The translations under genes and the position numbers were made by a program. A DNA stretch of 45,969 nucleotides from Gemmatimonadota bacterium (GTDB taxonomy: Bacteria > Latescibacterota > UBA2968 > UBA8231): positions 1 through 45,969 of the forward strand of contig JAYOYH010000018.1 in NCBI GenBank assembly GCA_038153405.1. The letters are read 5' to 3'. The notes under the pieces were generated by a model. It was not told the DNA's origin and ran no database searches. It saw only the letters and a program-made list of their open reading frames with translations. Positions 35,301 to 43,762 of the stretch are shown here, piece by piece. Numbering within the stretch: position 1 is the stretch's first letter; each line of letters opens with the position of its first letter.

Positions 35301-36374
35301 CTATTGTCGCTGGTTGGCGCGATCGATTTCTTCAATCTGGTGGGTAGCGTAGTCTTTGAATCGACTGTCCTGCTGCGCTTGGGCGTAGTAGGTGCGCGCC
35401 TCGCGCATCTCGCCCAGCTTGAAATGCGCATCGCCGAGCAGGTTCTGCGCCGACGCTAGGTTTTTATCGCGGCGAATGGCGGCCTGTCCCGCCTCAATGG
35501 CGTTGCGATACGATCCCATTCCGTAGTGCGCTTCGCCAAGGCGAAAGTGGGTTTCGGCATTTTTGCCGTCCAGTTCGGTGGCGCGCTGCAGCGGTTCGAC
35601 CGCCTCGTGCTGGCGTCCGAGCTGGTTGAGTGCCGTGCCGAGGTATAAATAGCCTTCGGCGTATCGGTCATCGGTCTTTAATGCGGTCTGCATCAGAGTG
35701 ACGATGCCCTCTAAATCCTGCGTGGCGAATTTTACGCGCGCCAGCCCGCCGTAGGCCTCCATGTATTTGCCGTCGGCATCGATAGCCCTTTGGTAGGTGG
35801 CGGCGGCCGGGCCGTAATCGCGCCGCCGGCGCTGGATGTCGGCCAGTGCGTAATGGGCCTTGGCGTACTGTGGATCGGCCTCTATCGCCTTGGCGAAGGC
35901 ATCCTGGGCCCGCTGGTCGTCGCGCAGGCCGTTGTGCGACAAGCCCAGCGCATAGTGCGTTTGCGCATTGTTGGCGTCGAACGGCAGCGCCTTGCCAAAC
36001 AACTGGATGGCCTCTTTATACTTGCGCTGTTGGAGGCTGGAGGCGGCCGACTTGAAGTATAATTTGCCGAGCGCTTCGGCGCATTTATCCGGTCGTATGC
36101 CGAGTTCGCGCGCCTTTTCATAGGCGCCGATGGCCTTGTCGTATTCGTTGAGAACGCTGTAGGATTGGGCCAGTAGGTAATGCGCTTGGCCGTAGTTGGG
36201 ATCGGCTGTGATGGCCTGCTCAAATTCGATGGCCGCATTGCGATAGTTGCGCTTTTTCAGCAGTTCGTAGCCCGTGCGGTAGTGGTCTTCAGCCCCTTCA
36301 TTCTCATTGGATTGGGCGCTGGCACCTAGCGAAAAGGCCAAGAGCGCACATAGGCAAAGGGAAAAGCATTTCAT
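35301..36374 (-). CDS. Secreted tetratricopeptide-repeat protein
   Basis: Signal peptide (LALLAFSLGASAQ-type) followed by about 9 TPR units (AHYLLA, THYALG, AHYALA, GYLYLG, THFRLG). Confidence 0.88.
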   Translation of the reverse strand: MKCFSLCLCALLAFSLGASAQSNENEGAEDHYRTGYELLKKRNYRNAAIEFEQAITADPNYGQAHYLLAQSYSVLNEYDKAIGAYEKARELGIRPDKCAEALGKLYFKSAASSLQQRKYKEAIQLFGKALPFDANNAQTHYALGLSHNGLRDDQRAQDAFAKAIEADPQYAKAHYALADIQRRRRDYGPAAATYQRAIDADGKYMEAYGGLARVKFATQDLEGIVTLMQTALKTDDRYAEGYLYLGTALNQLGRQHEAVEPLQRATELDGKNAETHFRLGEAHYGMGSYRNAIEAGQAAIRRDKNLASAQNLLGDAHFKLGEMREARTYYAQAQQDSRFKDYATHQIEEIDRANQRQ

Positions 36375-36477
36375 TTGGGCATTCTCCTATGGGAGAAGGG
36401 ACAATAGACATCGATCGCACGCGGGGGGGTGACATGCCCCGGGTTTGGGACGCCCGTACAGCATCGGTTGCGCCGGT

Positions 36478-36708
36478 CTAACGGGCGTCGATCGCAGCTT
36501 TTATTTCAGCGAAATCGGGGTAGCGCCCCTCGTTGAGCTTAGAATAGATCAACGCGCCGTCCAATTCGATTTCAAAGCGCCCCCCGTCGGAGGGAACCAA
36601 GGTGAATTCGGCAATGTCTTTTTTGTATTCTTTGAGTATGAGTTCCGCCAAACTGACGGCTTTGGGCTCATATCCTCAAGCAGAGCAGTAGGCCAGGCGC
36701 AGTTTCAT
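36478..36708 (-). CDS. SelW/SelT/SelH (Rdx family) selenoprotein, 76 aa, CxxU motif; not in the ORF track
   Basis: Manual translation MKLRLAYCSAUGYEPKAVSLAELILKEYKKDIAEFTLVPSDGGRFEIELDGALIYSKLNEGRYPDFAEIKAAIDAR*; TGA at 36676-36678; Rdx hallmarks YCxxU, GGRFEI, LIYSK..GRYP; GAGGAG RBS 8 nt upstream. Confidence 0.92.
36637..36672 (-). promoter_or_regulatory. Candidate bacterial SECIS element
   Basis: After UGA: lower stem UAUGAG/CUCAUA, upper stem CCGUCA/UGGCGG, apical loop GUU starting 22 nt after the UGA. Confidence 0.65.
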
Positions 36709-36769
36709 AATGCGTGCTCCTCGTGTCGACAAACGGGGTAAATGATACGGGCAAAGCTCAGTATGGGAG

Positions 36770-36798
36770 ATTATAAAAGCGACTTGAACTATTGTCAA
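36770..36798 (-). promoter_or_regulatory. Consensus sigma70 promoter upstream of the selenoprotein gene
   Basis: Minus strand TTGACA-atagttcaagtcgcttt (17 bp)-TATAAT. Confidence 0.88.
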
Positions 36799-36822
36799 AA
36801 AAGAAGGATACGCGTTTGGTCG

Positions 36823-39759
36823 GTGATCGACTCGTGCACAGGTCCGTCCCCTTTACTGCGTTTGGCCAGTGTGCTGCTCGTTCTGTGCTGGCTGCGGCCA
36901 ACGATCGCCGAAGGGCCGGTCCCTTTCCCCTATGAACTCCGCTGGAAGTCCTCGGTTCCCGCCGCGGGGCAGTCCGCGGTGGTAGAGTGGGATTCGCTGG
37001 TCTTTATCGCCCACGCAGAGGGGCGATTGGAGGCGCTGCGCAAGAGCGATGGCGTGCGCGTTTGGCTGCGGCGCGATATGGGACCGATGCTCCAAGCGCC
37101 TGTCGTCTGGCAGGGTGCGCTGCTGGTCGCCAATGCGTGGGGCGCGGTATACTCGCTGCGCGCAGATACGGGCGTTGAAAATTGGTCTTTTCAGCGCGTG
37201 GGCGGGGGAGATTGTGCGCTCGCCGTAGTCGACGGCACGCTCTACGCTTCGGCTGTCGACGGGTGGCTGTATGCGCTGAGTCTAGATGGTGCGGAGCGCT
37301 GGCGCGCGCGACTGGGCCCGCGCGGGGCGCTCGGTTTACAGGTGCACGATGGAATGGTATACGCCGGCGCGGGGGCCGGGATTGCCGCGCTCGAAGCGAG
37401 CAGCGGTCAACCCCTGCTAGCGATCGATATGGGCGCGCGGGCAACGACGTCGCCCCTCGTCGTCGACCAGCGCCTCTTCGCTGCGTCGGGCGACGGCTAT
37501 GTGCATGCCTACGACGTGCGCAGCGGCGAGTCGGTTTGGAGCGCGTGGTTGGGCGCTAAGGTAAAGGAGCCCATGGCTGTCGTCGGAAAGCGTCTCGTTT
37601 GCGCGGCCGACAACGGGTATCTCTACTCTATAGACGGGCGGGAAGGGCGCATTGAATGGCGGTTGCCCATGCCGGGCGGCGTGGCCGGCGGCGCGGTTCT
37701 GGGACCGCTGGGCGAACTGCTCGTGGGGTCGAATCGCGATAGCCTAAATGCCGTGAATCCGCTTACCGGACAGAGGCTGTGGTCCGTGCGCATGGGCAGC
37801 GGTCAGGGGCAGCGCATAACCGGGTTGAGCAATGGATTTTGGATTGCTGCCGCGGGTCGGTACGCGCATGCCTTTGCGCTGCCGGCGCGCAGCGCGCCCC
37901 CAGTCCCGGATGAACAGCGCACGTGGTGGGAAGTGTTCGTAGATGGCGAGAAAACAGGGTACATCGGGCAGGCGGTGCGTTCACGCGCGGAGAATGGGTG
38001 GCTTTTTGAAGAGGAACACGTCGATTGGCGCAGCGGCTTCCGCCGAACAGTCGGGGTCGTGGAGGTCGATAGCGCTTTTCGGCCCAATGCCCTCTGGGAA
38101 AAAGCGGTCGAGGGGAGGCAGACCGTTTCCACGCGCGCGCAGCGGAGCGGTGGTGTGGTCGCAGTTGAACGCGAGTTGGCCGGCTATGTCGTCAGCGACA
38201 GCGTTCAGCTCGATGAGACGGCTATTGCGGTGGATGCACTGTGGCTCAAATTGGCGCGCGAACAGCGCCTGCAGCCCGGCCGCCGCGATTCCCTGCGCAC
38301 CGTCGATATGACCCATGGGCGGGGCCGCTGGGTCTATTTAGACATGCGCGCTGAAGGCGACCAGCAGGGCCGCACGGCAATCGAAGTGGCCGTTTCGTCC
38401 GAGCGCAACGGTGTGCCCGAGATCGTGGCTTGGGTTGAGCGCAGCGGCCACGTCGTGCGAATACACCAGCCCGGGGCGCGCGTCGAACGGATCGTTGCCG
38501 ACCAACAGCGCGCTCGCCGCTGGGCTGCTCCCGGTGCCGAGCGGGGACCGATTCTAGACCGCTCCGTCCCGCATGCGCTTGCGATGGATTGGCTGGTCTT
38601 GGAACTGCCGGCAGAAATAGGCAACCCGCGGTCGCTGCTGGTCGAAGATGCGTGGCAGCGCCTGCACCGCGATGATGCGGGTCGCTGGTCGCTGCGCGTG
38701 CGCAAGCGCGCAGAGCCGCCGCTGTCGCAGCACCTGCCCTTCGACGATCCGGTGCTGCGTCCGTATATGGCCCCTTCCCTGTATGTTCAAGCTGACGATC
38801 CGCGCGTGCGCGACTTGGCCTGGTCGCTGCGCGGTGCCGAGCGCGATGCGTGGACGGTGGCCATGCGCTTACGGCGTTGGGTGTATGACCACATGGTGCC
38901 CCGCGATACCAACGTGCAGTTCAAGTCTGCGCTGGAAGTGCTCGACGATATGGAGGGCACGTGCAGCGAATATGCGGCCCTGTATATGGCCTTGTGCCGG
39001 GCTGCCGGCGTGCCGGTGCGCGCCAGCGTCGGTTGGCTCGTTGGCCAAGAGGGACAGCTCGTGCCCCATATTTGGTGTCAGATCTACGTGGGGGAATGGG
39101 TGGATGTGGATCCCTCTCAATCGGCCGAAGTCGTTGGCGCCGAACACATCAAGACGGGAAACGGCCTGCTCACAGTACAGGGCCTGCGCCAGCTCGGCCA
39201 CCCACTGACGCAGTGGATTGCATCGGTCGACACGCTGTCGGTAGTGGAATACAGCGCGGACGGCGTCCACTTTTCCCGGCGCGCGGCCGACCTCTACGCA
39301 GCTGCTGTGGAGGCCGAGCGCCGTTTCGACGATCCGCGTGCCGTCGAATTGTATCACCAAATTGACCAGCTGCCGTGGAGCGATCGCAGTGCCCTTGCGC
39401 TGGTGGGTATTGCCCGCTACCGCCTGCGCCGAGGCGAGTGGGACGATGCCCAATGGGCGCTAGGGCGGCTGCTGCGCGCCGATCCGCGCGGTGAGGGAGC
39501 CGACGATGCGCTGTTCTATATGGCCCGGTTGGCCGCTGCGCGCGGCGATAGCACAGCCGCTGTGGAGCACTGGCAAACGCTCGTGCGCGACTTTGCCGAC
39601 TCCGACTTTGCCGACGACGCGCTGGCTGAGCTAGCGGCACAGGCGGAGCGAAACGGCGGCTGTCGCGCCGCATTGGACTACTACGAGCGGCTGCGAGAAG
39701 CCTACAGCCGGTCCGGCTGGTCGGCGGTTGCCGCGTCGGCTATTGACCGCTGTAGATGA
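36823..39759 (+). CDS. Exported multidomain protein: PQQ-like (BamB-type) beta-propeller + transglutaminase-like domain + TPR
   Basis: Repeats such as GRLEALRKSDGVRVW, GYVHAYDVRSGESVW, GYLYSIDGREGRIEW; TGase GTCSEYA...CRAAGVPVR...HIW...WVDVDPS; TPR ADDALFYMA. Start uncertain (GTG 36823 chosen). Confidence 0.82.
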   Translation: MIDSCTGPSPLLRLASVLLVLCWLRPTIAEGPVPFPYELRWKSSVPAAGQSAVVEWDSLVFIAHAEGRLEALRKSDGVRVWLRRDMGPMLQAPVVWQGALLVANAWGAVYSLRADTGVENWSFQRVGGGDCALAVVDGTLYASAVDGWLYALSLDGAERWRARLGPRGALGLQVHDGMVYAGAGAGIAALEASSGQPLLAIDMGARATTSPLVVDQRLFAASGDGYVHAYDVRSGESVWSAWLGAKVKEPMAVVGKRLVCAADNGYLYSIDGREGRIEWRLPMPGGVAGGAVLGPLGELLVGSNRDSLNAVNPLTGQRLWSVRMGSGQGQRITGLSNGFWIAAAGRYAHAFALPARSAPPVPDEQRTWWEVFVDGEKTGYIGQAVRSRAENGWLFEEEHVDWRSGFRRTVGVVEVDSAFRPNALWEKAVEGRQTVSTRAQRSGGVVAVERELAGYVVSDSVQLDETAIAVDALWLKLAREQRLQPGRRDSLRTVDMTHGRGRWVYLDMRAEGDQQGRTAIEVAVSSERNGVPEIVAWVERSGHVVRIHQPGARVERIVADQQRARRWAAPGAERGPILDRSVPHALAMDWLVLELPAEIGNPRSLLVEDAWQRLHRDDAGRWSLRVRKRAEPPLSQHLPFDDPVLRPYMAPSLYVQADDPRVRDLAWSLRGAERDAWTVAMRLRRWVYDHMVPRDTNVQFKSALEVLDDMEGTCSEYAALYMALCRAAGVPVRASVGWLVGQEGQLVPHIWCQIYVGEWVDVDPSQSAEVVGAEHIKTGNGLLTVQGLRQLGHPLTQWIASVDTLSVVEYSADGVHFSRRAADLYAAAVEAERRFDDPRAVELYHQIDQLPWSDRSALALVGIARYRLRRGEWDDAQWALGRLLRADPRGEGADDALFYMARLAAARGDSTAAVEHWQTLVRDFADSDFADDALAELAAQAERNGGCRAALDYYERLREAYSRSGWSAVAASAIDRCR

Positions 39760-43568: not shown

Positions 43569-43762
43569 GAGGACCTCCCGCCGCAATCCCTTTCCGGATG
43601 GACCTAGCTGTACGCCCATCGGTTTCTGAGCCGTCGGGGTATAGCGCGCGTCATCGGCGTTGTTGCATCGAGCGCTGGTTTAGTGCGTATCGACTGGCGG
43701 CTGCTTGGGATGGGGTCTACCTTAGGGCGAGGACGGCAAGTCTGCGATCATAGAAGGGCTGT

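Follow-up and report, generated by a model that had tools for sequence, protein, structure and literature searches.

This locus raises the question of whether a minus-strand frame of the window (the whole 45,969-nt stretch of DNA analysed here) that carries TGA as its eleventh codon is a functional selenoprotein gene, and what its product does. We are confident in reading the frame as an intact SelW-like gene in which UGA11 very likely encodes selenocysteine (Sec), the product being a likely thiol/selenol oxidoreductase with a predicted thioredoxin-like fold. The gene is real but ordinary: it is skipped by standard gene finders, adds to a known family common in marine bacteria and changes no concept. 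Prokaryotic SelW-like proteins with a CxxU motif and the PF10262 domain are tabulated as a known family (PMC9312934, PMC13188914). According to the Sargasso Sea survey, they form the largest selenoprotein family with 48 genes, and all 310 selenoprotein genes were misannotated (PMC1088965); the GOS survey likewise gives SelW-like proteins as the largest family, with 427 genes in the Sec form and 56 in the Cys form (PMC2398784). The earlier note on this DNA had described a known family with an unannotated member; the SelW-like family and its regular misannotation have been in print since 2005 (PMC1088965). The family, its motif and the reason why such genes are missed were described in 2005-2008, and the present finding corrects a missing annotation.

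Gene structure, family and fold

The frame runs from ATG (36708-36706) through the in-frame TGA (36678-36676) to TAG (36480-36478) and encodes 76 residues when the TGA is read through, with C8-S-A-U11 as the redox motif of the product (Table 1). The coordinates, the translation and the GAGGAG element given for it in the earlier note agree with ours, as does the remark that ORF calling had yielded an antisense frame only: a 98-aa frame at 36445-36741 is the sole ORF of at least 70 aa over the gene, and a Pfam search with it returned no match. The sigma-70-type site upstream is a putative promoter of the SelW-like gene, judged by its match to the consensus: it agrees in 12 of 12 positions, with 0.4 such sites expected in shuffled sequence, is one of four sites in the genome that match perfectly, and has counterparts with 11-12 of 12 at the SelW locus of all seven same-genus relatives. 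No terminator-like site was found between the SelW-like and TPR genes in a search of positions 36300-36950, and the TPR gene may possibly lie on the same transcript.

Table 1. Features of the SelW-like locus, with positions in the window
Feature	Position	Strand	Basis
SelW-like (Rdx family) gene, 76 codons + TAG, in-frame TGA at codon 11	36478..36708	-	sequence, profiles
In-frame TGA, codon 11; predicted Sec at the second CxxU position	36676..36678	-	conservation in loci; Cys in solved homologs
Cys8 codon, first CxxU position	36685..36687	-	Cys in 30/30 loci
Core of predicted bacterial SECIS: 6-bp stem, 3-nt G-led loop	36645..36659	-	fold, conservation, covariation
GAGGAG, Shine-Dalgarno-like, 8 nt upstream of ATG	36717..36722	-	sequence
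Putative sigma-70-type promoter, match 12/12, 17-nt spacer, ends 61 nt before ATG	36770..36798	-	motif match
GRFEI motif, residues 43-47, Rdx family	36568..36582	-	sequence; aligns with GLFEI and GAFRI in 2fa8, 2obk
TPR-repeat protein, downstream neighbour, 103 nt past SelW-like stop	35301..36374	-	sequence, profile

Profile searches place the read-through protein in the Rdx/SelW family, as had been proposed: it matches PF10262 (Rdx) with 74.5 bits (cut-off 22.6, E=7.9e-21), residues 3-74 aligning with positions 2-73 of the 74-position model, and TIGR02174 (CXXU_selWTH) with 65.1 bits (cut-off 34.2). The lowest E-value among the NCBIfam models, 3.1e-23, belongs to the equivalog NF041051 (SelTWH_Campy); its score of 81.8 bits lies below the cut-off of 88, and the protein is not filed as a member. 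The SelW-like gene accounts for all PF10262 matches in this genome. The GxFEI/V motif is a mark of the Rdx family, and a motif similar to GRFEI occurs in each of the 30 loci of this genome and 29 relatives. The motifs listed in the earlier note stood as regards CxxU and GRFEI, whereas the C-terminal one reads GRYP, not GRFP. Neither the read-through protein nor its post-TGA part had an exact counterpart in a collection of 15 billion sequences, a result that says little.

A single-sequence AlphaFold2 model (pLDDT 89.5) has the order strand-helix-strand-strand-strand-helix, with C8-S-A-U11 directly after the strand formed by residues 2-8, and predicts a thioredoxin-like fold. In Foldseek the model reaches TM 0.79-0.88 to 2fa8, 2obk and 3dex, thioredoxins ranking lower, and the eight solved sequences that match the protein are all Rdx/SelW-related. 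The Cys-form Rdx structures 2fa8 (Atu0228), 2obk, 2ojl, 2p0g, 3dex and 2oka share the predicted fold (TM 0.78-0.88) at 25-38% identity; in the two alignments shown, 2fa8 and 2obk, their CxxC aligns with CxxU, Cys replacing the UGA-encoded residue at the second position. These proteins have 103-108 residues as deposited, compared with 76 here. More distant matches are mammalian SelW (2npb; E 8e-05, TM 0.60) and MIEN1/C17orf37 (2ljk; E 2.5e-07, TM 0.68), and the partners of these mammalian proteins cannot be assumed for a bacterial one. With other prokaryotic SelW-like selenoproteins the protein shares the CxxU motif, the Rdx profile, a small single domain, a SECIS element after the UGA and a marine or estuarine source, and we found no difference of kind; ten GOS reads have the SelW-like gene beside a peroxiredoxin selenoprotein gene (PMC2398784), whereas the gene here stands alone.

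Conservation of the UGA codon and of the SECIS-type hairpin

A SelW-like match was detected in 36 of the 40 related genomes searched, with one in-frame TGA in each top match. In all 30 loci fetched (the present one and 29 from relatives), TGA occupies codon 11 and Cys codon 8. A wider scan confirmed 181 stretches, the best 80 of which were kept; its search patterns included the amino acids of the hairpin region and left the silent sites free. TGA occurs at codon 11 in 79 of these best 80 loci and in 104 of the 105 non-redundant loci that remain when the 30 loci and the best 80 of 181 are pooled and five duplicates of relatives are removed. None of the 105 (which include the best 80 of 181) has TGC or TGT at this codon. 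Together with the Cys in 2fa8 and 2obk, these counts bear out the expectation that homologs carry Sec or Cys at position 11. The sole non-TGA homolog among the 105 (L122:50-277; the best 80 of 181 included) has Gly at this position and hence a CxxG motif, possibly as a gene that left Sec use or through a sequence error.

Comparison with seven congeners gave pooled pN/pS values of 0.27 (codons 2-10), 0.32 (codons 12-23) and 0.25 (codons 24-72). The values before the TGA and for codons 24-72 imply purifying selection on both sides, and we conclude from these substitution patterns that what follows the UGA is maintained as a protein sequence. The synonymous rate pS is 0.36 in the hairpin zone and 0.67 downstream; we dropped this reduction as evidence for a SECIS element, since codons 2-10 also show 0.37.

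The hairpin predicted downstream of the UGA, of which the earlier note made no mention, has its loop start 22 nt past the UGA (Table 1), and the 49-nt region folds at -14.1 kcal/mol. The published bSECIS model has a loop of 3-9 nt, a stem of 4-16 bp, G in the first two loop positions, a distance of 16-37 nt from the UGA and a minimum free energy of at most -7.5 kcal/mol (PMC13188914); the hairpin agrees with it in loop, stem, leading G, spacing and energy. It lies within the coding region, in contrast to eukaryotic SECIS elements, which are located in the 3' UTR (PMC1802603). Its stability alone is modest, since 5 of 200 shuffles at 49 nt and 32 of 200 at 79 nt fold as well. A generic test for any hairpin of at least 5 bp did not discriminate, since each of the 80 loci passed it, even the one without TGA; we scored pairing column by column instead.

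In the stem alignment of 26 distinct close relatives, every cell is paired and no change affects both sides; the score is attained in 35 of 500 shuffles. The signal comes from the wider set, 99 distinct sequences that include the best 80 of 181: 94.9% of cells pair, and 20 cells change on both sides, compared with a shuffle mean of 2.1 (0 of 500 shuffles as high) and with at most 6 in slid controls, although kin sequences are not independent events. The silent third positions of Ala17 and Ala/Thr21 form C-G in 83 of these 99 sequences, G-C in 8 and U-A in 7, the single unpaired case being the non-TGA homolog; the outermost stem pair is broken in 29 of the 99. In addition, all 105 loci (the best 80 of 181 included) have C at the third position of codon 18, which is fourfold degenerate. 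The compensatory silent changes across about 100 sequences make the SelW hairpin a clean bacterial SECIS example, which could seed a family-specific SECIS model.

Probable redox role and genomic links to selenium genes

In the predicted model, the loop that connects strand 1 to helix 1 contains Cys8 and Sec11. Judging from fold and motif, these two residues would alternate between the reduced thiol/selenol state and a selenyl-sulfide bond, exchanging electrons with protein or small-molecule disulfides. The exchange would take place in the cytoplasm, since the sequence begins directly with strand 1 and has no leader. The SelW-like protein is thus likely a redox enzyme; the Sargasso Sea survey, which calls the function of the family unclear, also derived a redox role from fold and motif (PMC1088965).

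The genes next to it recur within the genus, a TPR-related ORF occupying the same place in same-genus loci. Downstream lie the TPR protein, a Ham1 pyrophosphatase and a creatininase-family enzyme, and the neighbour on the opposite strand is beta-propeller/transglutaminase-like. These recurring neighbours point to no substrate of the SelW-like protein. The divergent neighbour (36742-39759, plus strand) itself encodes 1005 aa, in which a transglutaminase-like core is combined with a PQQ/BamB-like beta-propeller and a TPR-like part at the C-terminus. The longest start of this frame overlaps the putative SelW promoter, so that the true one probably lies further downstream.

More specific than a general redox role would be a function in selenium handling, in which the protein reduces selenium or carries it to SelD. 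Among the 105 loci, which include the best 80 of 181, eight (L093, L116, L130, L132, L151, L156, L157 and L162) have selD as the next gene downstream of the SelW-like gene, in the same orientation, and an oxidoreductase-SelD fusion converges on the SelW-like gene in two (L119 and L136, the fusion being confirmed for L136); all ten selD genes were detected by tblastn and 4 of the 10 by profile. A thioredoxin has been assigned a role in selenite reduction for selenoprotein synthesis (PMC8538045), and one SelW-like gene adjoins the selA-selB-tRNA-Sec genes (G024, see below). Against this function, the neighbours in the present genome and genus are the TPR protein and the pyrophosphatase, selD being on another contig; the ten selD-linked loci carry mostly Planctomycetota-type titles and may reflect few inherited events; and clustering of selenium-related genes need not mean that they act on one another. 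We therefore consider a dedicated selenium-handling role unlikely. Nothing beyond the linkage to selD and to the Sec cluster hints at a more specific role, and this hint is weak. It is similarly doubtful that bacterial SelW-like proteins in general are accessories of the Sec pathway, their placement beside selD or selA-selB-selC and the consensus promoter reflecting that role; if true, such a role would supply a function for the most abundant marine selenoprotein family.

In the G024 locus (L167, G024:C1:2827500-2833000), the SelW-like gene converges on the selA-selB-tRNA-Sec cluster and ends about 90 nt from the tRNA. Short selB-like matches of 58-60 aa at the edges of L134 and L159 were left out of the count.

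Selenocysteine machinery and the reading of UGA

That the likely oxidoreductase contains Sec presupposes a Sec machinery, which the earlier note had expected in this organism. The expectation held for three components, selA (contig C29, 560 bits on TIGR00474), selB (C26, 341 bits) and selD (C77, 356 bits), all above their cut-offs; searches of the 93%-complete assembly did not find the fourth, tRNA-Sec. The selA and selB matches have no internal stops, and selD has one in-frame TGA. By the mechanism established in E. coli (PMC1794560), SelD would make selenophosphate, SelA would convert Ser-tRNA(Sec) into Sec-tRNA(Sec), and SelB, bound to the hairpin, would bring Sec to the UGA. The conserved TGA, the covarying SECIS-type hairpin and the presence of selA, selB and selD jointly favour the proposal that the TGA encodes Sec.

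In a de novo scan for selenoproteins, 75 of 18,237 TGA sites passed; most of these were noise, and four with a recognisable redox context were taken on. These four genes (SelW-like, SelD, FdhA and a UxxC gene on C51), each with a hairpin after its UGA, are a lower bound, at least four, and no full selenoproteome. SelD is itself a predicted selenoprotein with a CGU motif (L022, G000:C77, TGA at 1753, plus strand), whose hairpin has 7 bp and a loop start 17 nt past the UGA. The formate dehydrogenase alpha subunit FdhA (L165:185-2983, G000:C13, TGA at 43609, minus strand) has an in-frame TGA with a strong hairpin, and when read through it scores 719.5 bits on TIGR01591 (cut-off 666). The C51 gene (L166:228-1055, G000:C51:29827-30654, plus strand), with UxxC in a thioredoxin fold, is a second unannotated selenoprotein candidate. 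It has a hydrophobic N-terminus, an AhpC-TSA/TlpA-like domain and a C-terminal FlgD-Ig or secretion-tail-like domain, a make-up which suggests a possibly exported selenoprotein; it has matches in 17 of the 40 relatives, with one TGA per top match, and the same hairpin in the six loci checked. The genome has at least four UGA genes, and selenocysteine use by this uncultured marine/estuarine lineage is very likely. A literature search for Latescibacterota and selenocysteine found no paper, and the lineage may be uncatalogued for this trait.

The search for tRNA-Sec bears on a reading in which this strain has lost the tRNA; translation would then end at the UGA with a 10-residue peptide, and the gene would be a recent dead remnant. 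In the assembly, the best Rfam hit reached 45.1 bits (cut-off 47) and is a tRNA-Ser; an Rfam scan covering the window and the loci of selA, selB and selD gave no match; a pattern scan for UCA anticodons gave five candidates, none folding as a tRNA; and BLAST and nhmmer with the tRNA-Sec of four congeners returned matches of only 13-22 nt. Relaxed ARAGORN runs produced dozens of noise calls and were left unused; three long ARAGORN calls (C4, C19 and C89), considered as odd tRNA-Sec, do not look like tRNAs. When the flanks of tRNA-Sec loci from eight relatives were mapped, one found a place, on C87, with no tRNA next to it; for the gene flanking tRNA-Sec in congener G003, the neighbouring place holds other DNA in this genome. 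tRNA-Sec was found in 30 of 40 relatives and in 4 of 7 congeners; the three congeners in which it was not found include the closest, G001.

These searches fit a loss, but they fit a gap in the assembly as well. The assembly consists of 93 contigs, many tRNAs lie at contig ends, tRNA-His was not detected either, and in two of the four congeners that have it tRNA-Sec lies at most 12 nt from a contig end. Moreover, the uninterrupted selA and selB, the hairpins kept at all four UGA genes and the intact, selectively constrained frame after the UGA argue against a dead remnant, which is very unlikely; the absence of tRNA-Sec is probably an assembly gap. Separately, one relative of 98% completeness on two contigs (G027) has a selA match and neither a tRNA-Sec nor a SelW-like match, possibly as a partial loss of the Sec trait or as a search miss.

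Even less probable is that the UGA is read as another residue, either Trp or Gly genome-wide or Cys locally by an unusual tRNA. Cys at this codon would also make CxxC, and no tRNA-Sec was found in the assembly. There is, however, no sign of a general reassignment, as TGA closes 575 of the 1,572 open frames of at least 400 codons (in any frame) and a CCA tRNA-Trp is present; the UCA pattern candidates do not fold as tRNAs; and the SECIS-type hairpin, SelA, SelB and SelD, and the canonical tRNA-Sec of relatives all point to Sec.

A TGC or TGT turned into TGA by faulty sequencing or assembly would be conceivable in a fragmented source assembly. Such an error is refuted by run X7 of another study, in which a 784-nt contig covers 36540-37000 including the TGA with zero differing letters, in keeping with the codon that the earlier note had read, and by TGA in 29 of 29 relatives examined. 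The RNA runs gave no contig over the UGA, and in run X8 the contigs of this organism do not reach it; RNA run X18 yielded no contig at the locus, and RNA run X19 has a 272-nt contig over 36315-36584, which lies outside the UGA and may be DNA carry-over. The runs that contain the SelW locus are estuarine, seawater, marine or ballast-water metagenomes from four studies, possible sources of the assembly being left out.
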